NCBI GenBank assembly: GCA_965214725.1
Contig: OZ243973.1
Location: 801,938-865,937 of the forward strand
Length of the DNA stretch: 64,000 bases
Source: Dehalococcoidia bacterium
GTDB taxonomy: Bacteria > Chloroflexota > Dehalococcoidia > UBA6926
Direction: 5' to 3'
A model generated the notes under the pieces. That model had not been told where the DNA came from and made no database searches. It worked only from the letters and a program-made list of their open reading frames with translations. Made by a program: the position numbers and the translations under genes. Shown piece by piece: positions 10,417 through 44,490 of this stretch (positions within the stretch are counted from its first letter, which is position 1; every line of letters begins with the position of its first letter).

Positions 10417-10435
10417 GGCTAGTGAGTGGAGAACA

Positions 10436-28295: not shown

Positions 28296-28299
28296 GTCA

Positions 28300-30063
28300 T
28301 CAGCGCGTGGCGGTCGTCTCTCTGGGTGGTGTTGCGTGTGGATGCTGCTCAGCGTTGTTGTTGGGGGAACGATGGGATGATGCATCAACGCGCTGGGCCG
28401 GGTGGGCCATGCCGTCTTGCGCGACGATGAGGGGTGGCTGCTCGCCGGCGCGGAGGATGCCGGCGGCAACGGAGACGAATTCCCGGAAAAGGGGATGGGC
28501 GCGCGTGGGCCGGGATTTGAATTCCGGGTGGAACTGCGTCCCAAGCATGAACGGATGATCACGCGCCTCTGAGATCTCAACAAGGTCAAGCTCCCGGTAG
28601 GCGCCGCTCACAATGAGGCCCGCCTCCTTAAAGGAGGCACGATAGGCGTTGTTGAATTCAAAGCGGTGCCGGTGCCGCTCAATGACGGTCTCCGGATCAC
28701 CATACGCATGGGCGGCAACGGTGCCGGGCGTGAGGTGGCAGAGGTAGGAGCCGAGGCGCATGGTGCCACCCTTGGCGCGGACACGCTCCTGCTCCTCCAT
28801 GATGTGGATGACAGGATGAGGCGTCCCGACATCAAACTCGGTGGAGTTGGCGCCGCTCAGACCGGCGACGCTGCGCGCAAATTCAATGACCATGATCTGC
28901 ATACCAAGGCAGAGGCCCAGATAAGGGATACGCTGCTCACGAGCGTAAGACGCGGCGCGGATCATTCCCTCGATCCCGCGAGACCCGAAGCCGCCCGGGA
29001 CAACGATGCCGTGCGCACGGGCGAGCCGTTCCTCCCAGCCGTCCACCTCCAACTCCTCCGCAGATATCCAATCAATGTCAATGTCCACGCCGATCTCAAG
29101 ACCGGAGTGGGTGAGCGCCTCCCGAACGGAGAGGTATGCATCACGCAGTTCAACATACTTGCCGACAATCGCGACGGTGAGCGGCGGCTTGGGTTCCTCA
29201 AAGCGCTGGACAAGGTCCCGCCAGTCATCGAGACGCGGCTCCATCTCCGCATACCCATCAAGCTTCATCCTGTTTAAGAGGTAGTCGCCAAGTCCGCGCT
29301 CCTCAAGCAGCAGCGGGACGCGATAGATGGTATCCACCGTCGAAAGCGGGATGACAGCCTGCGGCTCAACATCACAGAACAGGGCGATCTTCTCGATGGT
29401 TTCCTGCGTGGTCTCCACCTCGCTGCGGGCAATGATGACATCCGGCAGGATGCCGGCGCTGCGCCCAAGCTCACGGACGGAGTGCTGTGTCGGCTTTGTC
29501 TTGAGTTCGCCGGTGGCGTGGAGATACGGCAGATACGTCACATGGACAAAGATGGCCTCAGTCCGACCGAGTTCGTTGCGGACCTGGCGAATCGCCTCAA
29601 GGAACGGCTGCCCCTCAATATCACCAACGGTTCCGCCCACCTCGATGATGATGACCTCCGCGCCGGACTCGTCCGCAACCTGCCTCATGCGGTTCTTGAT
29701 GGAATTCGTGACATGGGGGACAACCTGGATTGTGCCGCCGAGGAAATCACCGCGCCGCTCACGGGAGAGCACGGATGAGTACACCTGGCCGGCCGTGACG
29801 CTGGACGCGCGTGTCATCTCGGCATCGACAAATCTCTCATAGTGGCCGAGGTCAAGGTCCGTCTCCGCACCATCACCCGTCACAAACACCTCCCCATGCT
29901 GGTACGGAGACATGGTGCCTGGATCGACGTTGAGATAGGGGTCAAGCTTCTGAACTGCGACCTTGATGCCGCGGCTCGTGAAAAGTCGGCCAATGGCAGC
30001 GGCCGTGATTCCTTTACCGATGGAACTAACGACGCCGCCTGTCACAAAGACGTACTTTGCCAT
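28300..30063 (-). CDS. pyrG: CTP synthase PyrG with a ~45-aa C-terminal extension
   Basis: MAKYVFVTGGVVSSIGKG synthetase N-terminus; glutamine amidotransferase domain with GLCLGMQ. Confidence 0.9.
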   Translation of the reverse strand: MAKYVFVTGGVVSSIGKGITAAAIGRLFTSRGIKVAVQKLDPYLNVDPGTMSPYQHGEVFVTGDGAETDLDLGHYERFVDAEMTRASSVTAGQVYSSVLSRERRGDFLGGTIQVVPHVTNSIKNRMRQVADESGAEVIIIEVGGTVGDIEGQPFLEAIRQVRNELGRTEAIFVHVTYLPYLHATGELKTKPTQHSVRELGRSAGILPDVIIARSEVETTQETIEKIALFCDVEPQAVIPLSTVDTIYRVPLLLEERGLGDYLLNRMKLDGYAEMEPRLDDWRDLVQRFEEPKPPLTVAIVGKYVELRDAYLSVREALTHSGLEIGVDIDIDWISAEELEVDGWEERLARAHGIVVPGGFGSRGIEGMIRAASYAREQRIPYLGLCLGMQIMVIEFARSVAGLSGANSTEFDVGTPHPVIHIMEEQERVRAKGGTMRLGSYLCHLTPGTVAAHAYGDPETVIERHRHRFEFNNAYRASFKEAGLIVSGAYRELDLVEISEARDHPFMLGTQFHPEFKSRPTRAHPLFREFVSVAAGILRAGEQPPLIVAQDGMAHPAQRVDASSHRSPNNNAEQHPHATPPRETTATR

Positions 30064-30338
30064 GCATCCCCAATGGCCTGCCCCACATGAATACGGTCAG
30101 GGGGGCAGTTACCGTTAGCCTTGTTCCCCATCAATGACTCGTCGTATTCATCCACAGCAACCCAAAAAGCGCTGCGCCGACTCTTCTCTCAGGGGAATTC
30201 TCCGCAAAAAGGACCGGCGCAACACGGCGCCAATCCCGATAACGGCTTTACTATGCCGCGTCCGCAAGTCACTGTCAAGTACGAACCCGCGCATACACAT
30301 CAATCTGCCCCGCTGACGGCCCGCGGCTGATAGCGCGC

Positions 30339-31448
30339 TCACTCGAAATCAGTGAGCCCGGCAATGATGTCCGGCGTCAGGCGGCGGACAACGTCCGCAA
30401 CAAGAATGACCGCATTCGCGAAATCGTCACGATGGATGACGCTGTTGTGGCTGTGCAGATAGCGCGTGGGAACAGCGATGTTGATGGATGGCGCGCCCGA
30501 TCCCGCTTTCTGCATCTCCGCGCCGTCCTCTCCATAGCCGCTCAACAAATTGAACTGGAGGGGCATCTCACGGTCGGCGGCCCCGTCCACAAACACATCA
30601 CGCAGGCGCAGGCTGGGCAGCATGGAGCTGTCATGCAGGAAAACCGTCGGCCCTTTCCCGAGCGCCTCCTGTGCCTCGTCCCGTGTGGTGCCCGGATAAT
30701 CACCCGCCACGCCCGATTCCACGTTGATGCCAACATCCGGCATGACGTGGAAGCTGCTGGTGTGCGCGCCACGCAGTCCGACTTCCTCTTGAACGGTGCC
30801 CACAAAGTAGATCGTCGCGGGCAGCGGATCCGTGGAGTCACGGAGTGCGCGGGCAACCTCAACGAGCGCGGCGAGCCCGGCTCGATCATCCCACGCCTTG
30901 CCGACATACAATTCCCCGCCCGCCATCTCCATAAAGGGGCTGTCCGGGGACACCGGATCGCCTGGGCGAATCCCGAGGCGCCCCTCCGCGTCCTCCCTAC
31001 TTGCTGCGCCAACGTCGATGAAGATCCCCTCCTTCTTGAAGATCTGTCCGCGAGCCTCCGGCTGCATCACATGCACCGTCTTGATTCCGGTCAGTCCCTT
31101 GATAGGGCCGTTGCGCGTCATCACAACCCACCGCTGGTTGATGAGCGCTTGATCCAGCCAGCCGCCGAGGGTCTGGATGGTCAGAAACCCCTCTGCCGTG
31201 ATCTGCCGCACCATGAGGCCCACCTCATCCATGTGGGCGGAGAGCATCACGCGGGGAACACCGTCATCCTCATGGCCAATCCGCGCAATGAGCGAGCCGA
31301 TGCCATCTGTCTCGATGGAGTCTGTCAGGGGAGTCAATTCCCGACGCAGGATGGCGCGGACAGCGCCCTCATGCCCTGTGGGCCCAAAGGCCTCAGACAG
31401 CTCTCGCAGCAGCCCACGCTGCCGCATGTAGGTCTCATTCGTCGTCAT
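30339..31448 (-). CDS. M42 family metallopeptidase (FrvX/YpdE-like glutamyl aminopeptidase)
   Basis: …AFGPTGHEGAVRAILRREL…MLSAHMDEVGLMVRQI… matches the M42 family. Confidence 0.75.
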   Translation of the reverse strand: MTTNETYMRQRGLLRELSEAFGPTGHEGAVRAILRRELTPLTDSIETDGIGSLIARIGHEDDGVPRVMLSAHMDEVGLMVRQITAEGFLTIQTLGGWLDQALINQRWVVMTRNGPIKGLTGIKTVHVMQPEARGQIFKKEGIFIDVGAASREDAEGRLGIRPGDPVSPDSPFMEMAGGELYVGKAWDDRAGLAALVEVARALRDSTDPLPATIYFVGTVQEEVGLRGAHTSSFHVMPDVGINVESGVAGDYPGTTRDEAQEALGKGPTVFLHDSSMLPSLRLRDVFVDGAADREMPLQFNLLSGYGEDGAEMQKAGSGAPSINIAVPTRYLHSHNSVIHRDDFANAVILVADVVRRLTPDIIAGLTDFE

Positions 31449-31770
31449 CAGCGTACAACCTCAACTCCCGATATTCGCCTGGTCGCATGGCATCGACAGC
31501 CGTGCCAATCTCAGCGACACGCAGTCTCAGCACGCGCCAATTCGGCGGATGCACAACCAATAGTGCGATGCCATAGCGTGGCAAATTCTGTTCATAGACG
31601 ATCCCCGCATCAGTGGAAATCAGTAAATCAAAGCCCTCTCGTTCTGCTGCTCGCAACAGGTCTCCATTGGCGATTCGTTCCCAGCCACGTTGCCGTGCAT
31701 ACACAACTGTATGGTGCGTCAGAAAACGGCGGAGGCTGTCGGGCACGCCATTGTCAAAGAGAATCCGCAT
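31435..31770 (-). CDS. DUF5615-family PIN-like protein (second copy in the window)
   Basis: MRILFDNGVPDSLRRFL…GDLLRAAEREGFDLLISTDAGIVYEQN matches the DUF5615 consensus (MKFLLDENLPRRLAELL…vlvTkDkDF). Confidence 0.6.
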   Translation of the reverse strand: MRILFDNGVPDSLRRFLTHHTVVYARQRGWERIANGDLLRAAEREGFDLLISTDAGIVYEQNLPRYGIALLVVHPPNWRVLRLRVAEIGTAVDAMRPGEYRELRLYADDDE

Positions 31771-32420
31771 TACCGGCCGGCGATGGCACCCGGGGAAGAA
31801 TCTCTGCGGCTTGATAGGTCAGTCTCCAAGAACGCCAAGATGGGCGCGACATCGTGCTCCTCAAGGCCGGACCCTTCGTAGAACCATTCAAGGAACTCGG
31901 ATAGTGGAAAATTGTCACGGAGCATGCTCAGGAGGTGCCCGACCGGCATTCTCGTATCGTAAATCACCAGTTGCCCGCTGACTTTGCCATGAAAACGATT
32001 CGTCTGGAGGCATGCGCTCCAATCAGTAATCCGATCCGTCGTCGGCTCCTGTCCCCACTGCTTTGTCCGATCGAAATAGGGGCCCTGCAACCATTCCGGC
32101 TTGAGTGTCTCGGTGTCTTGGATCGTGGTTGCCAGGTCATGCAACTCTCGATCGTAGATGTCGCGCGAGGGGCGGTACGCTTCCGCTGCGAGGAAGTCGA
32201 GGACCGTCCTGACATCCTGCTCACTGACCGTGTGCCCGCACCAATCGAGAAAGTCCTCAACTGTCCCATTCCGCCGCAGAACCGTGAACAGACCGGCTAC
32301 AGGAACATCCGTATCCCTAAAGACAAGCAGAGAGCCCCCTTCAGACGGGCCATCCGTGACGCAGGGGCATTCGCCCCAGAAGGTCAGCATATTCGTTGGG
32401 TCTGCCGCAACCGCCACCAT
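31770..32420 (-). CDS. Tandem-DUF433 protein (two DUF433 repeats), partner of the downstream DUF5615 gene
   Basis: Two repeats: …VFRDTDVPVAGLFTVLRRNGTVEDFLDWCGHTVSEQDVRTVLDFLAAE… and …VIYDTRMPVGHLLSMLRDNFPLSEFLEWFYEGSGLEEHDVAPILAFL…. The stop overlaps the start of the DUF5615 gene. Confidence 0.55.
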   Translation of the reverse strand: MVAVAADPTNMLTFWGECPCVTDGPSEGGSLLVFRDTDVPVAGLFTVLRRNGTVEDFLDWCGHTVSEQDVRTVLDFLAAEAYRPSRDIYDRELHDLATTIQDTETLKPEWLQGPYFDRTKQWGQEPTTDRITDWSACLQTNRFHGKVSGQLVIYDTRMPVGHLLSMLRDNFPLSEFLEWFYEGSGLEEHDVAPILAFLETDLSSRRDSSPGAIAGR

Positions 32421-32500
32421 CGCTCACCGCCCCTTTCACGCCTCCCTCTTTATTCGTCATTATAGGTAGAACCCGTTCACGCAAGGAGAGACCAACCCGC

Positions 32501-34276
32501 ATGTCACACCAGCACAATCAGTCAGGCAGCAACGGCGCCGCCCTTGAAGGCCGCTATGCCGGTGACAATGACACGCTCATCCGCATGCGTCATTCCGCCG
32601 CCCACATCATGGCAGAGGCTGTCCTCTCCATGTTCCCTGACGCCAAACTCGGCATCGGCCCCCCCATTGAGGATGGCTTCTATTACGACTTCCTCCTGCC
32701 CCGCTCACTCTCCACGGACGATCTCCCGGAGATTGAACGACGCATGCGGGAGAGTGTCACTGACGCGGAGCCGTTCATCGCCGCCGACGTCCCCCGCGCA
32801 GAGGCATTGCAGCGCTTCGCTGATCAACCCCTGAAGGTCGAAATCATCGAGAGCCTCCCGGATGAGACTGTCTCCACCTACACGCACCGCGGCTTTACGG
32901 ATCTCTGCCAGGGCCCGCACGTGGAGTCCACAGACAAGACGGGCGCGTTCACCCTGACCCGTGTGGCGGGCGCCTATTGGCGCGGCGATGAGACGAAGCC
33001 GCAGCTCCAGCGCATCTACGGCGCACTCTTTGAAACGCAAGACGAGCTCGACGCCCACCTGGAACGCTTGGCGGAGGCGGAGCGGCGCGACCACCGCCGC
33101 CTCGGCCGCGAGCTCGATCTTTTCTTCTTCGATCCCATCGCACCGGCCAGCCCCTTTTTCCTGCCAAAGGGCGCCACCGTCTACAACCTGATGGTCAATT
33201 TTATCCGGGAGCTCTATGAGCAGTACGGCTACCAAGAAATCATCACCCCCCAGATCTTTGCGACCGATCTCTGGAAACAGTCCGGCCACTATGACAACTA
33301 CCTGGAGAACATGTACCTCACGCAGTCCGATGAGGTCCAGTACGGTGTCAAGCCGATGAACTGCCCCGGCCACTGCGTCGTCTACAAATCCCAGCTGCAC
33401 TCCTACCGCGCCCTGCCCTTGCGGCTCGCCGATTTTGGCAGGCTCCACCGCAATGAGCGGTCCGGCGTCACACACGGCCTCACCCGTGTCCGCAGCTTTG
33501 CGCAGGATGACGCCCATATCTTCTGCCGGCTCGATCAGGTGCAAGTCGAGTTCTCGTCCCTGATCCGGATGATGCGGGATGTCTACCACGCATTCGGCCT
33601 GAATGAGCCGCGCTATACCCTCTCACTCCGGCCGGACAAGCGCGTCGGCAGTGACGAGACGTGGGATCAGGCCGAAAGCGCGCTGCGAGAGGCGCTCACC
33701 ATCGCCGGCGCAGACTTCGCGGAGATCCCCAACGAGGGCGCGTTCTACGGCCCCAAGATCGATCTCTTCTCGCAGGACGCCCTCCGGCGTGAGTGGCAGC
33801 TCAGCACGTTCCAACTCGATTTCAACCTGCCGGAACGGTTCGACCTCGAATACGTCACAGAGGATAACCGCCGTGAGCGCCCCGTGATGATCCATCGCGC
33901 CATCCTCGGCTCATTGGAGCGGTTCTTTGGCGTTCTCCTGGAGCACAACGCCGGCGCCTTTCCTCTCTGGCTCGCGCCCGTGCAAGCGACAATCATCCCA
34001 ATCGCAGACCGGCACATCCCCTACGCCGAGCAGGTGGAGCAGCAGCTGCGCGCCGCCGGCCTGCGGTGTGACATAGACGGCCGCAATGAGCGCATGAACG
34101 CCAAGATCCGTGAGGCACAGACGCGGCACGTGCCCTACATGCTGGTGGTGGGAGACCGCGAGGAGGAATCAGGCGCCGTCGCCGTCCGCCGCCGCGAAAA
34201 CAGCGAGAACCTGGGCGCGCTGCCCATCAACGAGTTCATCACCCAAGCACAAGAAGAGGTGACAGCACGGCGGTAG
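32501..34276 (+). CDS. thrS: Threonine--tRNA ligase (ThrS), apparently lacking the N-terminal TGS domain
   Basis: The editing-domain motif RHSAAHIMAEAV sits near the N-terminus; class II core motifs and the C-terminal anticodon-binding domain are present. The ATG at 32501 follows an AAGGAGAG RBS. Confidence 0.85.
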   Translation: MSHQHNQSGSNGAALEGRYAGDNDTLIRMRHSAAHIMAEAVLSMFPDAKLGIGPPIEDGFYYDFLLPRSLSTDDLPEIERRMRESVTDAEPFIAADVPRAEALQRFADQPLKVEIIESLPDETVSTYTHRGFTDLCQGPHVESTDKTGAFTLTRVAGAYWRGDETKPQLQRIYGALFETQDELDAHLERLAEAERRDHRRLGRELDLFFFDPIAPASPFFLPKGATVYNLMVNFIRELYEQYGYQEIITPQIFATDLWKQSGHYDNYLENMYLTQSDEVQYGVKPMNCPGHCVVYKSQLHSYRALPLRLADFGRLHRNERSGVTHGLTRVRSFAQDDAHIFCRLDQVQVEFSSLIRMMRDVYHAFGLNEPRYTLSLRPDKRVGSDETWDQAESALREALTIAGADFAEIPNEGAFYGPKIDLFSQDALRREWQLSTFQLDFNLPERFDLEYVTEDNRRERPVMIHRAILGSLERFFGVLLEHNAGAFPLWLAPVQATIIPIADRHIPYAEQVEQQLRAAGLRCDIDGRNERMNAKIREAQTRHVPYMLVVGDREEESGAVAVRRRENSENLGALPINEFITQAQEEVTARR

Positions 34277-34324
34277 CGGGGGCGGATGGGGGATGGGGGA
34301 TGGGAAAGTACGTCTGAACCGGGC

Positions 34325-34708
34325 TCAACTGCCATGACTGCCGTGATAGTGCAGTCGAGCCTCAACAAGTTGGCCATGAACAGGGTCCGCCGCCATCCCC
34401 AATCCCTCCAACGCATGTGCCCCAAGCAGTGGCTTGGCGCCGCTTGGACCGAACAGCACAATGGTCGTCGCCTCAAACCCGTTCACCTTAACGACGGCCT
34501 CGCCCATGTCCATGCTGATGACCCGACCGTCCGCTAATTCAAAGGGGCGCGACTGTGCAGGCGTGACACCGATGCTGGCGAGGAAATCGGATGGCAGCAC
34601 GCTATACGCGGCGCCGGTGTCCACCGTCGCCTCAACATCGCGCCCAGCATTGCCATCACGGCTCGCGAACTGAACCGTCGCATCAAACACACCCACAGAA
34701 TCTTGCAT
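34325..34708 (-). CDS. Retropepsin-like (clan AA) aspartyl protease, paralog 1
   Basis: VEATVDTGAAYSVLP catalytic DTG(A) motif plus the downstream GxxxLLGxxxL pattern. Confidence 0.65.
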   Translation of the reverse strand: MQDSVGVFDATVQFASRDGNAGRDVEATVDTGAAYSVLPSDFLASIGVTPAQSRPFELADGRVISMDMGEAVVKVNGFEATTIVLFGPSGAKPLLGAHALEGLGMAADPVHGQLVEARLHYHGSHGS

Positions 34709-34870
34709 TTTACTTCCCCATACAGACAAGTCGAATGGAATTCCGATTCTTCCCGTACCTCTTAATTCTAGCCCCCTTACAAATCTCAGACAGAACGGTG
34801 ACAATGGGTGCAGAGTTGGCCACCAGTTGGTAGCCAACTGGAAGCAATCAACGTAGGGGAGGGACGTTAC

Positions 34871-36586
34871 ATGGTCATGGAAGCTCGTAACAGGCGCCTG
34901 CCTGACTGGCTGATTCGTGTAAAGAGTGGCCAGTTAGCCCTTCCAAGATTTCAGCGATTCGAGAGCTGGGGCCACGGAGATATTGAAACTCTTCTAGACA
35001 CCGTACTCCGCAAGAGACCAATTGGGGCTGCGTTGGTACTTGCCATCGGCGACAAGGAGCCATTCGTAAGCCGCGCAATGGCAGGCGTACCGCAACCAAC
35101 TGAACGGACTACTGAGCACCTCTTGGACGGGCAACAGAGACTAACTGCGTTGTGGAAGGCACTAAACGACGGATACACGGACCGGACTTATTTTGCGGTG
35201 CTTCAGCCTGATGTTGACGATCCATCATTCGTCAAGAGCTACAGTCGATGGCACAGAAATGGACAACGGTACCCTCTTTGGGTTGACCGGCCAGCTGAAC
35301 AGTGGAATCGCGGTCTGGTGCCTTTGCGCCTTCTCAACCCGGACGCAGATTCCAGTGAAATAGGTGCTTGGTGTGATTCAGCTACAGATTCTCTAGAAGA
35401 CAGTCGTGACTTAGAGCGCAAACTGCAAGTACATCGAACCGCCTTGCAAGAGGCAAACCTCCCCTTCCTAGAATTACCGGTTGACACGCCTCCTGATGAA
35501 GCAATCGACGTCTTTATCAAGATGAATACTACTTCGGTCCGCCTCACTGCATTCGATATTGTAGTCGCTCAGATGGAAGCAGCCACAGGTCAATCGCTGC
35601 ACGAGCTTGAAGGATCGTTGCGTTCGGCAGTACGCGAGGCTGAATGGTATGTCGATATTTCGGACTTGATCCTCCGAGTAGCTGCCCTCAGGGAAAACCG
35701 ACCACCAACAGAGTCCTCCTTCATGCGCCTGGACATGCAACGGCTCTCGGACGAGTGGGAGGCCATTCAACAAGGGGTAGATGGTGCAATCAGATTTCTA
35801 AGGGAAGAGCACATCTATGATCGCGAGCGGTTGCCCACGGTCGCAGTGGTACCAGTTCTTGCGGCAATCTGGAGTCAAATGCCTCAGTCTCTTGATGCAC
35901 ATGGTGAAGCGCGTACGCTGCTCCGAACATATTTGTGGCGTGCATTCTTCACTGACAGGTATGATCGAGCGGCTGGCACGGCCGCCTTACAAGACTATCG
36001 TGGACTAAAGTCCCGGCTGGTTGACGCGGATGGTGATGCTCTAGCCCCAATATTCGAGGAGCATCGGTTCCCCGTAGCCGAAATCGAGCAAATAGAAAGG
36101 GCGCCTTGGCCTAGGCTCCGGAACACTTTGGCGCGCGCAATACTCGCAGTGTCGCTGCGGGCAGGTGGCAGGGATTTTGCCGACGATAGTCCAGTAAGTT
36201 CAGAATCTCTTTCCAGAAGGGAGTATCATCATCTTTTTCCCGAGGCTCTCTTGAGGAATGATGGCTTGCTTGAGGATTCAGAAATTCACTTGGCATTAAA
36301 CTGCGCTTTGGTCACTTGGAATACCAACCGTAATATCGCCGCCAAGGAACCTGTTGCCTACCTGCGGGAGCGTGTTGAACGGGCGCCACTAGGCGAGGAT
36401 CAGATTCGTAGCAGACTTGATTCCCACATCATCCCGTTCAGTTTCCTAAATGTTGGTGGTTATGCCAATATGGTCGATAAAGACGCTCGTGCAACGAAAA
36501 TCGGGACAGACTACAGCGATTTTGTACGAGCCCGCGCCGCGGCAATTCACGAGGTAGTAACTAGGCTGTGCAATGGCGAGGAGTAA
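34871..36586 (+). CDS. Second GmrSD-like DUF262/DUF1524 fusion protein (putative type IV restriction endonuclease)
   Basis: DGQQRLTALWKAL (DUF262). C-terminal …EYHHLFPEALL…HLALNCALVTWNTNRNIAAKEP (DUF1524 H-N-H-like). Low-GC gene. ATG at 34871 follows an AGGGGAGGGA RBS. Confidence 0.7.
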   Translation: MVMEARNRRLPDWLIRVKSGQLALPRFQRFESWGHGDIETLLDTVLRKRPIGAALVLAIGDKEPFVSRAMAGVPQPTERTTEHLLDGQQRLTALWKALNDGYTDRTYFAVLQPDVDDPSFVKSYSRWHRNGQRYPLWVDRPAEQWNRGLVPLRLLNPDADSSEIGAWCDSATDSLEDSRDLERKLQVHRTALQEANLPFLELPVDTPPDEAIDVFIKMNTTSVRLTAFDIVVAQMEAATGQSLHELEGSLRSAVREAEWYVDISDLILRVAALRENRPPTESSFMRLDMQRLSDEWEAIQQGVDGAIRFLREEHIYDRERLPTVAVVPVLAAIWSQMPQSLDAHGEARTLLRTYLWRAFFTDRYDRAAGTAALQDYRGLKSRLVDADGDALAPIFEEHRFPVAEIEQIERAPWPRLRNTLARAILAVSLRAGGRDFADDSPVSSESLSRREYHHLFPEALLRNDGLLEDSEIHLALNCALVTWNTNRNIAAKEPVAYLRERVERAPLGEDQIRSRLDSHIIPFSFLNVGGYANMVDKDARATKIGTDYSDFVRARAAAIHEVVTRLCNGEE

Positions 36587-36610
36587 GCGGGCCTGCCACG
36601 GTCCTCACCC

Positions 36611-36641
36611 GATGGATTCCCGCTTGCGCGGGAATGAGGGG
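36611..36641. repeat. REP1-family element
   Basis: gatggattcccgcttgcgcgggaatgaggggac. Confidence 0.8.
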
Positions 36642-36683
36642 ACGGGACACCGGAGCGGGGCGGGTTAGCGAGGAAGCAGGCCT

Positions 36684-36709
36684 GTCATTCTGAGCGCAGC
36701 GAAGAATCC
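36684..36709. repeat. REP2-family element, short form
   Basis: gtcattctgagcgcagcgaagaatcc. Confidence 0.8.
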
Positions 36710-36754
36710 AAGAGGGTGTTCTGGGGGCAGGGTGCTTCTGCAAGCGCCCCCGCC

Positions 36755-37108
36755 CTACAACGTCAATTCTGCTTGGATGAGCTCGCCTTTTAGGGGGTCC
36801 ACTTGCAGCGCCAACGCCTCCAGCGTGTAGGCGCCCAACAGCGGCCTCGACTCCTCTGGCCCGAAGATAACGTACGTTGACACGTTCACACCGTTATACG
36901 CGATCATCGCCTCCCCGATGGGCATGTCCAGTTTTCGGCCATCGGCGACGTTGAACGTTCGTGTCTGTGTTGGAGTGATGCCGAGTTCATCCAGCACGAC
37001 TGAGGGCAGGAGCGAGAAGAAGGCTCCGGTATCCACCAGGGCCTCAACATCGCGTGAGTGGGTTCCCTCTCGATTTGAAACCGTTATTCCTACCCGAAAC
37101 GCCCCCAT
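36755..37108 (-). CDS. Retropepsin-like (clan AA) aspartyl protease, paralog 2
   Basis: VEALVDTGAFFSLLP DTG motif; ~45% identical to the 34325..34708 product. Confidence 0.65.
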   Translation of the reverse strand: MGAFRVGITVSNREGTHSRDVEALVDTGAFFSLLPSVVLDELGITPTQTRTFNVADGRKLDMPIGEAMIAYNGVNVSTYVIFGPEESRPLLGAYTLEALALQVDPLKGELIQAELTL

Positions 37109-37186
37109 AGCACAATCGCTCCTTCCATTTCTGTAAGTCAGCCCGGTTGGCCAGTGTAATCGCGGATTAGTATACAGTCCTTCCCA

Positions 37187-37219
37187 GATGGATACCCGCT
37201 TTCGCGGGTATGAGGGGAG
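37187..37219. repeat. REP1-family element (tacccgc variant)
   Basis: gatggatacccgctttcgcgggtatgaggggagg. Confidence 0.8.
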
Positions 37220-37496
37220 GCGGGCATGAGGGAAGATGAGCGAGCGGGCACACCTACCGATTGTCACGGACAGGGTCAAAGCCTCTGAGCGGTTCAGCAC
37301 GCCTAGTCGCAATGCGCAGATAGTGGATTTTGGCCGTCCCCGCAATACCGGAGAGAGACGAGAATGAGGGCAGGCGGCGGCTCCTGTCCTTGACCGCGTC
37401 GGGCGGGACGCCTATCGTACTCGCAGATTGGGTGGCGTGGAGAATCAGAATCATAATGCCGCGCGGCGCGCCCTATCACCGGGGGAGAGGATCACC

Positions 37497-39893
37497 ATGA
37501 CCAATGGCACGCATGACACCGCGTTAGGACACCTGAGAGTCGTCGAATACGGCGAGATGCCGGCTGCGTATGCGGCTGGCTACCTGGCCGGACTCGGCGC
37601 GGACGTAATCAAAGTGGAGCCGCCGGGGGGTGATCCGAACCGTGCGCATGGGCCCTTTGCGGGCGGCATCGTGCACGCCGAGCGCGGCATCCCGTTCCTT
37701 AATGCCAACCTGAACCGGCGCAGCATCGTCCTGGATATCGATGATGCGGACGGGATGGCAACGCTGCAGCAGCTGGTGGAGCGGGCCGATATCTTTGTGG
37801 AATGCACGCCGCCCGGCCACCTCTCCGCACACGGCCTCACGGAGGAACGGCTCCAGGAAGTGAATCCCGGCCTCGTCACCGTTGCCATCACCCCGTTTGG
37901 ACAATCAGGGCCATACAGCCACTTCGCGGCGAATGAGGCCGTCGTCTCTGCCATGTCCGGCGTGATGATGAGCCAGGGGGATGATACGCGGGCGCCCGTT
38001 GTTCTGCCGTGCCAGATCGGCTCGCAGCTGGCGGCCGCCCACGGGGCCTATCTCGCCATCGCTGCCGTGCGGCACCGCCGCATAACGGGGCGGGGACAGC
38101 GCATCGATCTGTCATTGCAGGAGGCGCTCACATATACGGGCGTCAGCGCCATTGCGCGCTACAGCCAACGGAGTGAGATTGTCACGCGGCAGGGAAACAG
38201 CGGCGGTCCGGCGAACATCTATCAGACCAAGGACGGCAAGTACGTCCAGATCGCCATCTTTATGACGGGCCATTGGCGCATTCTGGCCCGCTCCTGGATG
38301 GAGGATGCCGTCCTCTCCGGCGATGACTGGGATTCCTCCCAATTCCGCACCGATAACGAGGACCTCGCGCAGGTCTTGATTCAATCATTCGTTGAACAGT
38401 TCGACCGCGATGAGTTCGTGGAGGAGGCGCAGAAGCGCGGCATCGCCGTCTGCCCCGTCAATACCTTTGAAGACTTTGTGACGGATGAGCATATGCGGCA
38501 GCGCGGCTGGTTCCAACGGGTGACGCACCCGGTGGTGGGTGAGTATGAAACACCGGGCCAGCCGTTCATCATGTCAGAGACACCATGGATACAGCCTCGC
38601 CCCGCCCCACTCCTTGACCAGCATCGCGATGAGGTTCTGAGCGAGATAGCGGCCATTCCGCCGCGTCGTGACGACGCCCCCGCCCCAACCAATGGACGCG
38701 CGCCTGATGCGCCGCTCCTTGAGGGCATCCGCGTCGCGGACATCACACGGGCATTTGCGGGGCCCATCGGCACCATGTTCCTCGGGTTCTATGGCGCTGA
38801 AGTCATCAAGGTTGAGTCAGAGAGCCTTGAGGCGAATCGTGAGCCGTCACGCCCACTCTTCCCGGACATGAACCGCGCAAAGCTGAGCTGCACCATTGAC
38901 CTGCGATCAGACGACGGCAAAGACCTGTTCCGTGATCTTGCCCGCACGAGTGACGTCGTTGTCGATAATTTCAGCGCAACCGTCATGAAACGGCTCGGTC
39001 TCGGCTATGAGGATCTGTCAGCCATCAATCCGGGCATCATCCAGATTGGGATGCCTGGCATGGGGACCACCGGCCCGCTCAATAACTGGGTCACATACGG
39101 CAACAACCTGCAAGCCATCACGGGGCTGTCCCTCCTGTGGGGGCACCCGGACTCCCCAATGCAGAGCCACGCAAAGGGAGTGATTCCGGATTACGTGGGG
39201 GCCGCATTCGTCGCGCTCTCCACACTCGCCGCGCTGGAATACCGGGACAGGACGGGACGCGGACAGCATATCGAGATCGCGCAGGTGGACGGACAAGGGC
39301 AGATGATGGGGACGGCCATCCTCGATTACACCATCAACGGAACCGTCTGGGGCAGCGTGGGGTACGATGAGCCGATAGCCGCTCACTATGCGCCATTCGG
39401 CGCGTATGCCTGCCGCTACCCGGACACCTGGATTGTCATCGCGTGTGAGACGGACGATCAGTGGCGCGCCCTCTCAACGGCCATGGGCGCCCCTCATTGG
39501 GCGGATGACCCTCGCTTTGCCGATGTGGCGGGCCGGCGCGCCAATCGGGACGAGATCGATCATGAGATTGCCGAGTGGACGCAGGCCTTCACGACACATC
39601 AGCTGCTTCACATGCTGCAGCGTGCCGGCGTGCCGGCGGGCGTCGCCATGAACGGAGAAGACCTCTACAACGATCCGCACCTGCGTGAACGTGGGCATGT
39701 GGTGCGAGCCACCCACTCGCCATGGGGACTGCTGTCTCACCAGGGGCTGCCGGGCATCCCGTCACTCTCCACGGCAAGCGCTGCGCGCCCCGCGCCATGG
39801 ATCGGCGCCGATAATGAGTATGTCTTCAAATCAGTGCTGGGCATGGATGATGCGCGCATCGCGGACGGCGTCGCGCGTGGCGTGCTAAGGTGA
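37497..39893 (+). CDS. Tandem-domain (fused) family III CoA-transferase, ~800 aa, with two complete CaiB/BaiF modules
   Basis: Module 1: LRVVEYGEMPAAYAAGYLAGLGADVIKVEPPGGDPNR. Module 2: LEGIRVADITRAFAGPIGTMFLGFYGAEVIKVESE. Each has its own conserved Asp-containing core. The ATG at 37497 follows a GGGGGAGAGG RBS. Confidence 0.75.
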   Translation: MTNGTHDTALGHLRVVEYGEMPAAYAAGYLAGLGADVIKVEPPGGDPNRAHGPFAGGIVHAERGIPFLNANLNRRSIVLDIDDADGMATLQQLVERADIFVECTPPGHLSAHGLTEERLQEVNPGLVTVAITPFGQSGPYSHFAANEAVVSAMSGVMMSQGDDTRAPVVLPCQIGSQLAAAHGAYLAIAAVRHRRITGRGQRIDLSLQEALTYTGVSAIARYSQRSEIVTRQGNSGGPANIYQTKDGKYVQIAIFMTGHWRILARSWMEDAVLSGDDWDSSQFRTDNEDLAQVLIQSFVEQFDRDEFVEEAQKRGIAVCPVNTFEDFVTDEHMRQRGWFQRVTHPVVGEYETPGQPFIMSETPWIQPRPAPLLDQHRDEVLSEIAAIPPRRDDAPAPTNGRAPDAPLLEGIRVADITRAFAGPIGTMFLGFYGAEVIKVESESLEANREPSRPLFPDMNRAKLSCTIDLRSDDGKDLFRDLARTSDVVVDNFSATVMKRLGLGYEDLSAINPGIIQIGMPGMGTTGPLNNWVTYGNNLQAITGLSLLWGHPDSPMQSHAKGVIPDYVGAAFVALSTLAALEYRDRTGRGQHIEIAQVDGQGQMMGTAILDYTINGTVWGSVGYDEPIAAHYAPFGAYACRYPDTWIVIACETDDQWRALSTAMGAPHWADDPRFADVAGRRANRDEIDHEIAEWTQAFTTHQLLHMLQRAGVPAGVAMNGEDLYNDPHLRERGHVVRATHSPWGLLSHQGLPGIPSLSTASAARPAPWIGADNEYVFKSVLGMDDARIADGVARGVLR

Positions 39894-40002
39894 TGGGGAG
39901 AGCAGACACAGCGTTGACGGCCATTCTTGACGGCCTGAACGGGCGGATTGTATAGTCCGTGCTTGAGAAACGCGGCTGAGACGGAACGGCGAGGGAGCAG
40001 AC

Positions 40003-40602
40003 ATACCGAGAGATTATCGCGTCAACCAGCGCATCACCGTGCCGGAGGTGCTTGTCGTCACCGACACAGGAGAGCGCGTTGGAGTGATGCAAACAACAGA
40101 GGCCATTCGTATGGCATTTGACCGGGGGCTTGATTTGGTGGAAGTAGCCCCCGGCGCTCAGCCGCCTGTGTGCCGCATCCTTGATTACGGACGGTATCGT
40201 TACGAACAGTCCAAAAAGGAGCGCGAACTCCGCAAGGGGCAGCACACACAGGAGCTTGGCGAGGTTCGGCTGAGGCCAAAGATCGGCCAACACGATATCG
40301 ATTTCAAGACGCGCACCGTTCGCAAGTTGATCGACGCCGGCGATAAGGTCAAGGTCTCCGTCATCTTTCGGGGCCGGGAGGCCACCCACCCTGAGCTGGC
40401 GATCAATCTGTTGAAGAAGGTGACGGAGCAGGTGGAGGACATCGCAGGGATTGACACGGCGCCGCAGTTGGAGGGACGAGGCATGAGCATGATCCTCGCG
40501 CCCCTCAAGCGCAAGAATGCGGCGGCGCCCAAGCAGACCCCTGAAGATCCGGACCCGATAGAAACCGAAGAGGTAGCCGCAACAGCCGGAACAATCGATT
40601 AA
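40003..40602 (+). CDS. infC: Translation initiation factor IF-3, probably initiating at a non-AUG codon (AUA at 40003 after a GAGGGAG Shine-Dalgarno; alternatives TTG 39964 or GTG 40039)
   Basis: …RVNQRITVPEVLVVTDTGERVGVMQTTEAIRMAFDRGLDLVEVAP… matches the IF-3 N-domain. The conserved residues extend upstream of the first in-frame GTG, which implies an unusual start as in E. coli infC (AUU). Confidence 0.65.
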   Translation: MPRDYRVNQRITVPEVLVVTDTGERVGVMQTTEAIRMAFDRGLDLVEVAPGAQPPVCRILDYGRYRYEQSKKERELRKGQHTQELGEVRLRPKIGQHDIDFKTRTVRKLIDAGDKVKVSVIFRGREATHPELAINLLKKVTEQVEDIAGIDTAPQLEGRGMSMILAPLKRKNAAAPKQTPEDPDPIETEEVAATAGTID

Positions 40603-40673
40603 ACTGAGTAGGCTTCGGCGCGTAACGCCGGGGCTGAACCGGGCACGCTGCGCGGGGATGGATAAAGAACGTT

Positions 40674-40880
40674 ATGGCAAAATACAAGCTCAAGACGCAC
40701 AAGGGAACGCAGAAGCGTATCGGCATGACCGGCTCCGGCAAGCTGACGAAGCGCAAGGGGCATCAGAGCCACCTGCGCCGCCGCAAGCCGAAGGATGTCA
40801 AACGCCTCTACAGCGATGAGATGCCGCTGAGCCCGGCGGACAGGCGGCGCGTGCAGCGCCTGCTCCCGTACGGCCCATAA
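40674..40880 (+). CDS. rpmI: 50S ribosomal protein L35
   Basis: MAKYKLKTHKGTQKRIGMTGSGKLTKRKGHQSHL… is a basic, short L35 pattern; position between infC and rplT. Confidence 0.8.
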   Translation: MAKYKLKTHKGTQKRIGMTGSGKLTKRKGHQSHLRRRKPKDVKRLYSDEMPLSPADRRRVQRLLPYGP

Positions 40881-40925
40881 GGCCCTCGCACTTTCCGCGG
40901 AACAGACGCAGAGAGGAATATCCAC

Positions 40926-41300
40926 ATGACCCGAATCAAGGGCGGGCCGCGAACACGCCGCCGACACAAGGAAGTTATCCACCTCATGAAGGGGCAGTGG
41001 GGCTCCCGACACAAGCTCTTTCGTCGGGCGCAGGAGTCCCTCCTCCATTCTTGGCAGTACGCCTATGAGCACAGGCGAGAGCGCAAGGGCGACTTTCGGC
41101 GCCTGTGGATCACGCGCATCAACGCCGCCGCGCGCCAGAATGGCATCACATACGGGAACCTGATCCACGGCCTCAAACTCGCCAACGTGGCAGTTGACCG
41201 CAAGATGCTCGCTGACCTTGCCGTTCGTGACGGGGCCGCCTTTGCGCGCATCGCAGACGCCGCCAAAGAAGCCCTCGCAGCGGAGCAGGCAGCGGCATAG
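40926..41300 (+). CDS. rplT: 50S ribosomal protein L20
   Basis: MTRIKGGPRTRRRHKEVIHLMKGQWGSRHKLFRRAQE… canonical L20. Confidence 0.9.
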   Translation: MTRIKGGPRTRRRHKEVIHLMKGQWGSRHKLFRRAQESLLHSWQYAYEHRRERKGDFRRLWITRINAAARQNGITYGNLIHGLKLANVAVDRKMLADLAVRDGAAFARIADAAKEALAAEQAAA

Positions 41301-41379
41301 GGATTTCTCGCATGCGTCCTGCCTGACCGCCGCACCTGCCGGCGCCGGTGACAATCGCAACGGCAAAGGATAGCCCGTC

Positions 41380-41955
41380 ATGGCCACAACAACCGCAAGC
41401 GCATCGACCAAGCCTCAGGTCGTCACAGCAGATGACCTGTTGCAGCGTGGCTCCACTGGCCCGCGCGGGGAGCTTATTCGAGGAGTGTTTTGCGAGATGC
41501 CGCCACCGGGACATGAGCATGGAGAAATCATCATGCGCCTTGGCGCTATGCTTCTTGGCGCCGTGACTCAATCCGGACTGGGCAGAGTTTCGGGCGCCGA
41601 CTCCGGCGTCTGGGTTGAGCGGAATCCCGACACGGTGCGGGCGCCGGACGTCTCCTTCTTTTCGGTTGAACGGATGCCGCTTGATGCCGCCATCCCCGGC
41701 TATGCAGAGATTGTGCCGGACCTGGCCGTTGAAGTTGTCTCACCGAATGATCGAGTAACCGAGGTTAATGACAAGGCCCGCATGTGGATCGATGCCGGCG
41801 TCAAACTCGTCTGGGTGGTCTGGCCGCAGTGGCACACCGTTGAGGTTCATCAACCCGACGCAGCAACCATTGAGCTCAGCGGAGATGCCACGCTTGACGG
41901 TCAGGATGTGCTGCCCGGCTTCTCCACGCCCATCAGCGCCATCTTCGCAGCCTGA
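41380..41955 (+). CDS. Uma2 family (DUF820) putative restriction-endonuclease-like protein, tandem copy 1
   Basis: …PDLAVEVVSPNDRVTEVNDKARMWIDAGVKLVWVV… is a typical Uma2/PD-(D/E)xK signature. Confidence 0.75.
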   Translation: MATTTASASTKPQVVTADDLLQRGSTGPRGELIRGVFCEMPPPGHEHGEIIMRLGAMLLGAVTQSGLGRVSGADSGVWVERNPDTVRAPDVSFFSVERMPLDAAIPGYAEIVPDLAVEVVSPNDRVTEVNDKARMWIDAGVKLVWVVWPQWHTVEVHQPDAATIELSGDATLDGQDVLPGFSTPISAIFAA

Positions 41956-41967
41956 GGATAGCCCGTC

Positions 41968-42543
41968 ATGGCCACAACAACCGCAAGCGCATCGACCAAG
42001 CCTCAGGTCGTCACAGCAGATGACCTGCTGCAGCGTGGCTCTACTGGCCCGCGCGGGGAACTTATTCGAGGAGTGTTTTGCGAAATGCCACCAGCGGGAC
42101 TTGAACATGGGCGTGTCGTCGCAAATCTCACAGTGTTGGTCTTGACGGCCGTGAGACAGAATGCACTGGGTACTGTGGCGTCAAATGACCCCGGCGTCTG
42201 GGTGGAGAAAGACCCCGATACCGTGCGGGCGCCGGACGTCGCCTTCTTTTCCACAGAACGTATGGACCCGACCGCAGCTGTCCATGGCTATGCAGAGATT
42301 GTGCCGGACCTGGCCGTTGAAGTTGTCTCACCGAATGATCGCGTAACCGAGGTTAATGACAAGGCCCGTATGTGGATCGATGCCGGCGTCAAACTCGTCT
42401 GGGTGGTGTGGCCGCAGTGGCACACCGTTGAGGTTCATCAACCCGACGCAGCAATCATTGAGCTCAGCGGAGATGCCACGCTTGACGGTCAGGATGTGCT
42501 GCCCGGCTTCTCCACCCCCATCAGCGCCATCTTCGCAGCCTGA
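41968..42543 (+). CDS. Uma2 family (DUF820) protein, tandem copy 2 (identical N- and C-termini to copy 1, divergent central ~70 aa)
   Basis: 588-bp tandem duplication unit including ~10 nt of the 5' leader (gatagcccgtcATG). Terminal thirds are identical; the middle is diverged. Confidence 0.75.
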   Translation: MATTTASASTKPQVVTADDLLQRGSTGPRGELIRGVFCEMPPAGLEHGRVVANLTVLVLTAVRQNALGTVASNDPGVWVEKDPDTVRAPDVAFFSTERMDPTAAVHGYAEIVPDLAVEVVSPNDRVTEVNDKARMWIDAGVKLVWVVWPQWHTVEVHQPDAAIIELSGDATLDGQDVLPGFSTPISAIFAA

Positions 42544-42578
42544 GGCCCCGGCCTCCCCCGCCACTCATGGCGGCTCTC

Positions 42579-43517
42579 CTACCCCTTGAAGACGTGCGTG
42601 TTATGCCACTCAAGGGCGTCCCGATCCGGCCTGTCAATCTCTGATTCAGGGATGAGAATCTCCTGACCGTCGTAGGCATAATATTCTCGCCCATTCTGGA
42701 ATTCCCATCTGATGCTCCCGCTGACTTTGAAGTGATAGTCCGGCGTAACGGTGACGTATCCCTCATCAAAGAGCTTGTGGATGTCCCGACGGAGCAACAA
42801 ACCATTGCTCGGCTCGTGTTCTCCATCCTTGCGGTACGGGCGGATGTGTGCCGCCTCTAAGGCGGGCAGCGTACGTTCCCGAGTAACAGCACACCGACGG
42901 TCATAAAGGTCCGCAACAATCGTTCGGAAACCACCCTGCCCCAGCCTTGGCTTAACGACCTGCGGGGCTCCGTACCTCTCTCGTCCTTCTGCAACAAGAG
43001 TTGCTGCCTCTCGAACTGCCTCGCGAGCTACGCGCTCCTGGAAAGCCCCCCTGAGTGCGCGTTCTATCTCTTGATCCTTTACACTGTCGTACCCCTTGCC
43101 GGTGACAATGTTCGGATGCCAGTCAGGAGGCGGGTCCATCCAGTCAGCCTCATCGAAAAAGAATGGCTGCAAGAGGACTCGGCATACGATCTCCGTGCGT
43201 GGGCCCTTCCACCCGTGTTTCGTGAGTCCCTCAAGAAATTCCTCTGGAGTTTCTGCCCCGTTATTTTCCTCGAAGGATTCCCAAGCAAAAAAGGGCGGGA
43301 GGATGGTTGAATACCGAAAATATGCTCCACCGACAATCTTGTTCCTAGGCGCATGCAACTTGAACAGGAACAGAGCACCCTGTTCAAGAGAACCAAGATT
43401 GTCCTTGCCAGACGGTGACCAAAAATTGACTTCACTTGGCTGGGGTTGGCGCTCTCTCAGCGTCCGAAACCAGTCATAGTCCGTGACCGCGACGACGAGG
43501 TTGATGGGCATGGTCAC
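42579..43517 (-). CDS. HNH endonuclease (HNH_2-type, AHIxPY…NGLLLRxDIHxLFD) with an N-terminal uncharacterised (possibly PUA/EVE-like) domain
   Basis: …CAVTRERTLPALEAAHIRPYRKDGEHEPSNGLLLRRDIHKLFDEGYVTV… is the HNH_2 signature. The N-terminal ~150 aa are unassigned. Confidence 0.6.
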   Translation of the reverse strand: MTMPINLVVAVTDYDWFRTLRERQPQPSEVNFWSPSGKDNLGSLEQGALFLFKLHAPRNKIVGGAYFRYSTILPPFFAWESFEENNGAETPEEFLEGLTKHGWKGPRTEIVCRVLLQPFFFDEADWMDPPPDWHPNIVTGKGYDSVKDQEIERALRGAFQERVAREAVREAATLVAEGRERYGAPQVVKPRLGQGGFRTIVADLYDRRCAVTRERTLPALEAAHIRPYRKDGEHEPSNGLLLRRDIHKLFDEGYVTVTPDYHFKVSGSIRWEFQNGREYYAYDGQEILIPESEIDRPDRDALEWHNTHVFKG

Positions 43518-43611
43518 TCCAGGGTGTCTAGCCGTCTAAACAGTATGGTAGCAGATAATCCCCGCTCATTCCCCTCATCCCCGCCGCGCCTCTCCCACGT
43601 ACAATGGATAT

Positions 43612-44304
43612 GTGGACACACCAACTCTGAGACGCCCCGCCACGGTGATCTGCGCCGCCTTGGTGGTGGCTGCCCTCCTCCTCATCGGTTGTGGCAGCGA
43701 GGATTCACCGGCCGTGACGCCATCCCCCACCACGCCGCCAGCATCAACCGCCACCCCCGTTCCAACTCCAACGTCACCGCCGACACCTGTCGCCCCAGCA
43801 GAGACATCCACCCCCGAGTCGGACGGGCCGCAGGCGCCCGATTTCTCGCTGCCGACAGGCGATGGCGCAACGCACACGCTGGACGGGCTGTTGGCGGGGC
43901 GCGAGGCGCTCGTGTTGGTCTTCTATCGCAGCTACCTTTGAGGCATCTGCCAACAGCAGCTCGTCGAGCTGCAGACCCTGTACCATGAGTTTGAGGGCCG
44001 AAACGTCGGACTCGCCGCCATCAGCACAGACACCCGGACGAATGCGGAGCAGATGCGGGATTTCGCCGCAGCCGAGTTCCCGATCCTCGCGGATACGAGC
44101 GAGGATGTCGCCAAAGAGTACGGTGTGTTCAACCTGTTGGAAGACGGCGTGGCCGCGCCCGCAACGTTCATCATTCAGCCGGACGGCGCCATTGTCTGGT
44201 GGTACATCGGTGTCAACATAGGCGACCGCGTCCCTACCCGGGCGATTTTGGAGGTGCTCGACGCGTTTCTGGAGGGTGGGCCGGTCAGGACAGCGGCCGT
44301 GTAG
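43612..44304 (+). CDS. Candidate selenoprotein: lipoprotein-anchored peroxiredoxin/redoxin-family thiol peroxidase with in-frame UGA (43939-43941) at the first position of the CxxC active site (U-G-I-C)
   Basis: N-terminal lipoprotein signal (LLLIGCGS), a Pro/Thr linker, then …ALVLVFYRSYL-TGA-GICQQQLVELQ…. This aligns to the redoxin motif FYRGxW-C-PxC-xxQL with the TGA at the catalytic Cys. The reading frame stays open after the TGA to 44304 and encodes the rest of a redoxin domain (…FPILADTSEDVAKEYGV…). An 8-bp-stem hairpin with a GUC apical loop starts 12 nt downstream of the UGA (43954-43974), consistent with a bacterial SECIS. Confidence 0.55.
43954..43974 (+). promoter_or_regulatory. bSECIS-like hairpin (cagcagcuc-GUC-gagcugcag) 12 nt downstream of the in-frame UGA
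   Basis: Seen directly in the sequence; the apical loop contains GU, as in characterised bacterial SECIS elements. Confidence 0.45.
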
Positions 44305-44490
44305 GCGGGCGCACACTCATCACACTAGCAAGCAGCAAAAGCCTAATCCTGCCCTTGCTCACGCACCACGGCCTTGCGGGCGCACACTTCACACGCGCAA
44401 GCAGCAAAAGCCTAATCCTGCCCTTGCTCACGCACCGCGGCCTTGCGGGCGCACACTCATCACACTAGCAAACAGCAAAAGCTTAAAATC
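44305..44490. repeat. ~70-bp tandem direct repeat, 2.6 copies, between convergent genes
   Basis: Unit ggcgcacac…gcaagcagcaaaagcctaatcctgcccttgctcacgcaccRcggccttgcg is repeated at 44307, 44378 and 44447 (partial). Confidence 0.8.

Follow-up and report, generated by a model that had tools for sequence, protein, structure and literature searches.

A nuclease gene and two retropepsin-like protease genes as probable independent tenants of a hypervariable thrS-infC interval in an uncultured Dehalococcoidia bacterium

The 64,000-nucleotide stretch of Dehalococcoidia contig OZ243973.1 analysed here (positions 801,938 to 865,937; hereafter the window) carries a DUF262 gene, GmrSD2 (34871..36586, plus strand, 571 amino acids (aa)), between two genes for retropepsin-like aspartic proteases on the opposite strand, protease A (34325..34708, minus strand, 127 aa as the annotated open reading frame (ORF)) and protease B (36755..37108, minus strand, 117 aa). 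An earlier note on this DNA had described an opposite-strand pair of clan AA proteases around a nuclease gene, and we found the three genes arranged exactly so, with A and B being 47% identical over 115 aa (E 6e-41). From the comparison of this locus with its relatives, we consider it likely that GmrSD2, A and B are independent tenants of one hypervariable accessory interval in the thrS-infC neighbourhood and that they do not make up a system.

According to this reading, a CoA-transferase gene together with a variable stretch would divide the classical thrS / infC-rpmI-rplT neighbourhood in this clade. A same-strand slot just downstream of thrS would hold one low-GC, type IV-like nuclease gene at a time, and this gene would be exchanged among lineages and even among strains, the presumed route being homologous recombination at the conserved flanks and REP repeats. 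Beyond the slot, on the opposite strand, the toxin-antitoxin genes vapBC and between zero and three minimal retropepsin genes (117-127 aa), belonging to paralog groups A-D, would be differentially kept or lost. In the window strain, A and B would have been retained while vapBC was lost, leaving the 'sandwich' arrangement; a search of the window for a vapBC remnant found none. Taken this way, the interval is an ordinary defence/toxin-antitoxin hotspot with one mildly unusual trait, the local build-up of minimal retropepsin paralogs.

Cassette switching downstream of thrS

We compared the window by blastn with L083, a 717-kb ENA contig from a strain of the same species. The flanks (26487-31476, 32417-34695 and 37183-44717) were 97.5-98% identical at the nucleotide level, and the strain-variable cassette between the last two (34696-37182, not assigned to a strand) had no nucleotide counterpart in L083 apart from REP matches. 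In its place, L083 has vapB and a DUF262 gene of another type (634 aa, GC 0.51), which shares 24% identity with GmrSD2, and it lacks protease B. The left breakpoint between the two strains coincides exactly with the start codon of protease A and the right breakpoint falls inside a copy of the repeat REP1 (37174..37218, plus strand). Different cargo between conserved flanks of close relatives, the mark of a hotspot, was thus seen between the window and L083, and nine variants of the locus were found.

On its left, the variable interval is bounded by the threonyl-tRNA synthetase gene thrS (32501..34276, plus strand), whose start was placed according to the MSHQ... start in its relatives. The encoded protein (ThrRS) is 98.6% identical to that of L083 and 84-88% identical to those of the relatives L003, L004, L172 and L173. 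On the right lies the gene of a double-domain family III CoA-transferase (37497..39893, plus strand; two Pfam CoA_transf_3 domains), which is 99.6% identical to its L083 counterpart and 79-83% identical to those of the relatives; infC-rpmI-rplT come next. Eight copies of REP1 and five of REP2 occur in the window, with a chance expectation of 0 for each. One copy of either repeat is found at the 3' end of the nuclease gene, as the earlier note had recorded: REP1 (repeat family D1) at 36598..36642 and REP2, GTCATTCTGAGCGCAGCGAAGAATC, at 36684..36708, both on the plus strand. This REP1 copy forms a direct pair with the one at the right breakpoint (45 nucleotides, 84% identity, 576 bp spacing), and the pair encloses REP2 and protease B. 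A scan for promoters and terminators yielded only weak consensus matches and zero terminators.

In all, nine loci were compared, comprising the window, L083 and seven further syntenic relatives from uncultured Dehalococcoidia-like Chloroflexota. They share the order Rho, CTP synthase, M42 peptidase, DUF433, thrS, variable stretch, CoA-transferase, infC, rpmI, rplT. The variable stretch of the window consists of A, GmrSD2 and B, an arrangement found in none of the relatives, and that of L083 of A, the second DUF262 type and vapB. L003 and L004 have GmrSD2 and vapCB, and L172 has GmrSD2, vapCB and B. The second DUF262 type (GmrSD3) is accompanied by B and vapCB in L173 and by C, vapCB and B in L178; L175 has an Mrr_cat/NA-iREase1 nuclease, B, C, vapCB and D. 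Finally, L177 contains A, a 190-aa hydrophobic ORF, vapB, B and D without a nuclease, and a search for nuclease remnants in this locus recovered a 16-residue trace only. The slot after thrS therefore holds one of three kinds of nuclease gene (GmrSD2, the 24%-identical DUF262 type or an Mrr-like gene) or is left without one. Outside the window species, six of the seven loci have a nuclease directly after thrS and lack protease A, and L177 shows the reverse. The ORF in the L177 slot (7749-8321) is strongly hydrophobic, has no Pfam match and lies in a patch of lower GC (0.55 vs 0.60); it may represent a further type of cargo.

A tree of ThrRS and CoA-transferase resolved the lineages as L173 / {L175, L178} / {window, L083} / {L003, L172, L177, L004}, and both nuclease type and protease groups are distributed patchily over it. 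GmrSD2 alleles are approximately 75-82% identical in all pairs, including those among L003, L004 and L172, whose ThrRS and CoA-transferase proteins are 92-94% identical to each other. Among these three lineages the synonymous sites of GmrSD2 are saturated (ThrRS synonymous divergence, dS, is 0.57-0.76), which points to exchange of alleles rather than simple descent. We also considered whether GmrSD2 had diverged through faster protein evolution and rejected this, as its synonymous sites are saturated too.

The nuclease and the proteases

The GmrSD2 gene has a GC of 0.53, compared with about 0.61-0.63 in its flanks, and a GC at third codon positions (GC3) of 0.507, the lowest among 53 long ORFs of the window (z = -2.5; window mean 0.70). 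The protease genes are host-like in this respect, with GC3 values of 0.64 and 0.70. The nuclease gene is thus compositionally foreign, as had been proposed. The earlier note had called it an AT-rich DUF262/DUF1524 gene; the composition and the DUF262 part of this description held, the latter with a match to Pfam GmrSD_N (PF03235; E 4.7e-20, 73 bits, cut-off 33.2), whereas the DUF1524 part was not matched by Pfam GmrSD_C (PF07510). Since GmrSD2 itself escapes this profile, which just 2 of 19 family members matched (E 0.005), a C-terminal nuclease domain is assigned to it by conserved motifs and by fold. The motif D86-G87-Q88-Q89-R90 is invariant across 60 full-length homologues (54-77% identity), and so are H453-H454, N477 and N486.

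The AlphaFold2 model of GmrSD2 (mean predicted local distance difference test score (pLDDT) of 90) gave BrxU (7p9k) as the best PDB match in Foldseek over its full length (E 3.6e-13), followed by SspE, and its C-terminal part matched the Cas9 HNH domain weakly. BrxU was also the sole significant PDB match by sequence, covering residues 16-99. The full-length fold match suggests that GmrSD2 follows the GmrSD architecture and that its C-terminal nuclease domain has diverged. PADLOC returned matches to the DUF262-type candidates HEC-05 and PDC-M55C. We predict from the model and the motifs that GmrSD2 is a stand-alone, BrxU-like type IV (modification-dependent) restriction enzyme with a His-Me-finger-like C-terminus. 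Characterised GmrSD enzymes such as BrxU work singly (PMC8565348), and GmrSD2 would likewise act alone as an NTP (nucleoside triphosphate)-dependent, modification-dependent endonuclease against phage DNA.

The GmrSD2 subfamily is tight (54-82% identity) and occurs in Chloroflexota, Latescibacterota, Acidimicrobiia and others. Family members at 65-71% identity are present in metagenome-assembled genomes labelled Dehalococcoidia, Latescibacterota and Acidimicrobiia, which suggests horizontal, and probably recent, spread of the family across phyla. This transfer has possibly taken place within sponge microbiomes, the habitat being judged from record names; restriction and toxin-antitoxin genes are enriched in sponge symbionts (PMC5649159). 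In most of 80 host genomes the family genes have a lower GC than the sequence around them, the difference being approximately 0.09 in the syntenic relatives. We also observed proteins of this family with 60-77% identity in unrelated contexts (L003-L017, L024; genomes labelled Dehalococcoidia, Chloroflexota, Latescibacterota and Acidimicrobiia), mostly at lower GC than their flanks. The window itself holds a further GmrSD gene (5344-7158, minus strand; GmrSD_N 2.1e-28, GmrSD_C 9.3e-19, GC 0.51), which adjoins two CoA_transf_3 genes (7167-8519 and 8652-9869) and is unrelated to GmrSD2 at blast level. A profile comparison between it and the GmrSD2 family aligned the N-terminal domain only, with low probability.

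Proteases A and B proved to be true clan AA paralogs, as the earlier note had held. Both match Pfam gag-asp_proteas and Asp_protease_2 (PF13975/PF13650). Each also aligns from end to end with NCBIfam TIGR03698 ('clan AA aspartic protease'), protease B (59.9 bits) scoring above the curated cut-off of 57.35 bits and protease A (56.8 bits) 0.55 short of it. No third protease copy was found in the 64-kb window. The true start of protease A is most likely the GTG at 34696, giving a protein of 123 aa that begins with MGVFDATV, judging by the match to the 99%-identical orthologue of L083 and by the family consensus MG(T/V)F. A sigma-70-like match, TCGACT-16-TAAAAT (34707-34734, minus strand), overlaps the upstream in-frame ATG; its consensus is weak, and it would favour the GTG start with a very short leader.

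In an alignment of 19 protease sequences V-D-T-G-A is invariant and L-L-G-A is nearly so, its G-A being invariant. The AlphaFold2 model of protease B (pLDDT 93.6) had 41 PDB matches with E <= 1e-3 in Foldseek, and nearly all of the 50 matches listed are retroviral proteases (XMRV, EIAV, FIV and HIV-1 among them), Rickettsia APRc, the RVP domains of Ddi1 or Pseudomonas aeruginosa RloA2. As the retropepsin domain fills all of the 117-127 aa, neither A nor B has room for a signal peptide or a membrane anchor. We infer that the two would be cytosolic, dimeric aspartic proteases under strong purifying selection.

Protease groups, co-occurrence and alternative explanations

The protease tree contained four paralog groups, with identities of 83-99% within group A, 76-91% within B, 89% within C and 79% within D, and of 35-61% between groups. 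Orthologues of group A stand beside thrS in the same position in L083 (99%) and L177 (83%). Those of group B (76-91%) are found in the same interval in L172, L173, L175, L177 and L178. Group B is also present at loci unrelated to this one: in L179 it adjoins rpoD, and in L174 it lies close to PmbA/TldD genes. Group B is 58-61% identical to C, about 50% to D and 46% to A. It is thus closer to C and D than to A, which argues against A and B being the halves of a split tandem duplicate. An origin of A and B in a recent local duplication was also rejected, with 47% identity between the two vs 76-91% among B orthologues. The group B copy of L172 (6001-6354) has VDMGA for VDTGA and is otherwise 87% identical to that of the window; judging by this substitution, it may be inactivated.

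We searched GmrSD2-family loci with up to 10 kb of flank (n = 82, of which 80 came from 381 genome-collection matches and two, L001 and L002, from protein look-up). A protease homologue was present within 10 kb in two of the 82, both times 9.4 kb away, and none of the 80 loci in other genomes had an adjacent protease. From the protease side, we searched 80 metagenome loci (424 kb) with the GmrSD2 hidden Markov model (HMM), with phmmer using three DUF262 proteins, and for the DGQQR motif, and recovered a DUF262 gene at none of them. According to Pfam, the 150 immediate neighbours of these proteases are spread over diverse metabolic and housekeeping families, among them Pyr_redox (8), Peptidase_M50 (5) and PmbA/TldD (4), and clustering the ORFs near the 80 loci for a conserved partner gave no cluster of more than 10 loci, the clusters obtained being metabolic or spurious high-GC ORFs. 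Within the clade, the nuclease occurs without a protease in L003 and L004 and proteases occur without a nuclease in L177, L174 and L179. Together, these distributions do not bear out the functional protease-nuclease association that the earlier note had offered as one of two explanations. Among the observations which it had named as refuting its proposals, the lack of co-occurrence elsewhere was found, but the same trio occurs in no relative and the low GC of the nuclease gene persists in relatives.

The other explanation offered was an insertion, in which the nuclease landed between paralogs A and B in an older protease-bearing locus, the proteases being the long-term residents. Across lineages the identity of group B (82-87%) tracks that of ThrRS (83-88%), which fits long vertical residence, and L177 has an interval with A, B and D yet no nuclease. 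Tandem protease pairs do occur in other genomes (L084-L091), and two or more copies are present at 8 of the 80 protease loci, which makes local multiplication a trait of the family; the GC of the nuclease is also below that of the proteases. However, the tandem pairs elsewhere are recent (74% identical) and unrelated to the split between A and B, which, as the most distant pair of groups among the four (46%), are no divided duplicate and are separated by other genes in L177. Moreover, the six relative loci with a nuclease directly after thrS and without A include the outgroup L173, so that the slot looks as old as the proteases. What varies would be the allele in an existing nuclease slot, and we regard an insertion into a protease pair as unlikely.

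It is also very improbable, in our estimation, that the minimal retropepsins A-D are an unrecognised immunity or addiction component, for example one that cleaves antitoxin or phage proteins, possibly as paralog heterodimers. If this were true, their clustering with swappable nucleases would reflect function and not a shared permissive site.

Similarly, we see little prospect for the idea that the proteases are semi-mobile 'selfish' cassettes, comparable to toxin-antitoxin genes, which would move from one intergenic site to another by REP-mediated recombination and accumulate wherever a hotspot is permissive. The position of group B relative to vapBC varies (L172 vs L173 and L178), B also occurs at the unrelated loci L174 and L179, the direct REP1 pair that encloses B and REP2 carries the strain breakpoint in one of its copies, and the family is prone to local multi-copy clusters. 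On the other hand, no transposase, integrase or inverted-repeat structure was found around the proteases, no relatives were found in 2.9 million viral contigs, and the GC3 values are those of the host. The ratio of nonsynonymous to synonymous divergence (dN/dS) is 0.04-0.14 in all comparisons (0.07 for protease A, 0.04-0.14 for protease B), which indicates that the proteases are functional genes. This strong purifying selection, a divergence that tracks housekeeping genes and the lack of a conserved adjoining partner gene all speak against such cassettes.

The least probable explanation is a functional module in which the proteases process, activate or regulate the nuclease or vapBC, e.g., by antitoxin degradation or infection-triggered activation: a protease gene lies less than 200 bp from the nuclease gene in the window, L083, L173, L175 and L178, the proteases share the strand of a complete vapBC in L172, L173, L175 and L178, and protease A has a weak PADLOC match to a 'protease' model (E 0.0055), but the same protease groups occur beside three unrelated nuclease types and beside none, L003 and L004 retain GmrSD2 and vapBC without any protease, no nuclease accompanies the B orthologues next to rpoD or PmbA/TldD genes, co-occurrence fails in both directions (0/80 each) with housekeeping neighbours elsewhere, gaps of 150-280 bp and opposite strands speak against co-translation, and the characterised GmrSD enzymes act singly (PMC8565348).

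Several points weigh against regarding the three genes as independent tenants. Proteases and nuclease share the interval in six of the nine loci, which makes their positional linkage within the clade real, and a loose functional link between them would still be compatible with the comparative sequence data. For DUF262 genes at the protease loci, detection depended on a single subfamily HMM, on phmmer with three proteins and on a motif search, with the Pfam scan covering immediate neighbours only. A further such point is the gathering of four protease paralog groups in one interval, and many losses would account for the nine loci equally well as lateral exchange among relatives.

With GmrSD2, A and B as probable independent tenants, the sandwich is one snapshot of a hotspot, and the comparison guards against a false call of a 'protease-nuclease defence system'. 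The locus is a clean natural case of a type IV restriction cassette switching between 98%-identical flanks in a translation-gene cluster. The components are all of known kinds (GmrSD, TIGR03698 clan AA proteases, VapBC, REP repeats and defence hotspots); the novelty lies in the documented switching of a nuclease cassette in uncultured Chloroflexota and in the local build-up of four minimal-retropepsin groups. These four groups of the smallest known retropepsin-type proteases, kept under strong purifying selection, offer a modest starting point for studies of clan AA enzymes in bacteria.

Other genes in the window and comparison with known systems

A second strain-variable patch is located just upstream of thrS, where positions 31477-32416 of the window are unmatched in L083 at the nucleotide level. 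The window has two genes here (31435-32420), one DUF5615-like (111 aa) and one with a double DUF433 (216 aa); the same patch contains one 103-aa DUF433 gene in L083 (12263-12574) and three DUF433 genes plus DUF5615 in L175 (9350-11207). Directly after rplT follow tandem genes of the Uma2 family of putative restriction endonucleases (41380-41955 and 41968-42543, plus strand; 191 aa each, about 86% nucleotide identity) and then a lower-GC HNH_2 gene (42579-43517, minus strand), an arrangement also present in L083. A 403-aa ORF (10367-11578, plus strand) without a Pfam match lies in a low-GC patch (GC 0.53, GC3 0.57) and may be another foreign or defence-type gene. The Rho ORF (26487-28589, minus strand) encodes 700 aa with a long Pro/Arg/Ala-rich N-terminal extension, and the GC reaches 0.72 around 27600-28200; as Rho is called at 587 aa in L083, part of the extension may be untranslated in the window.

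Among known systems, proteases A and B resemble the TIGR03698, gag-asp_proteas and Asp_protease_2 families in consisting of a single retropepsin domain of about 107-120 aa with VDTGA and LLGA motifs. In contrast to TIGR03698, a DTGF subfamily, they carry DTGA. We know of no member of the TIGR03698 subfamily with a described function. The clan AA fold is shared with RimB (PMC11957791), APRc (PMC4140852) and the Rlo proteins (PMC12239564), and like RimB both A and B are small stand-alone enzymes. Rickettsia APRc is membrane embedded (PMC4140852) and the P. aeruginosa Rlo enzymes are secreted or periplasmic (PMC12239564), whereas A and B have neither anchor nor signal peptide. Unlike RimB, which belongs to RimABK, they lack a rimK/ATP-grasp partner, their neighbours being thrS, GmrSD2 and the CoA-transferase gene. 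Among the 150 neighbours of the wider protease family, ATP-grasp was represented by just two ATP-grasp_5 proteins, beside Succ_CoA_lig and CoA_binding_2 (two each), and the RimK family was not among the 25 families listed. A defence/toxin-antitoxin hotspot as genomic setting further distinguishes A and B from RimB, APRc and the Rlo proteins.

GmrSD2 is similar to BrxU and other GmrSD type IV enzymes (PDB 7p9k; PMC8565348, PMC12409352) in having an N-terminal DUF262 domain with DGQQR, a helical middle region and then a putative C-terminal H...N...N, His-Me-finger-like nuclease region. As for BrxU, the predicted system is a single low-GC gene in a variable island. The identity between the two proteins is just 16%, however, and GmrSD2 differs further in a C-terminal domain that Pfam GmrSD_C does not recognise and in its position outside any BREX locus.

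The thrS-infC interval is reminiscent of defence islands and integration hotspots (PMC8565348, PMC10952713), as unrelated nucleases alternate between core flanks that are 98% identical, and as it carries toxin-antitoxin genes, REP repeats and low-GC cargo. In contrast to typical hotspots, it is very small (approximately 2.5 kb) and has room for a single nuclease gene; it lies inside the thrS-infC translation cluster, with no integrase or tRNA involved; and its cargo includes as many as three retropepsin paralogs, an unusual component for such sites.

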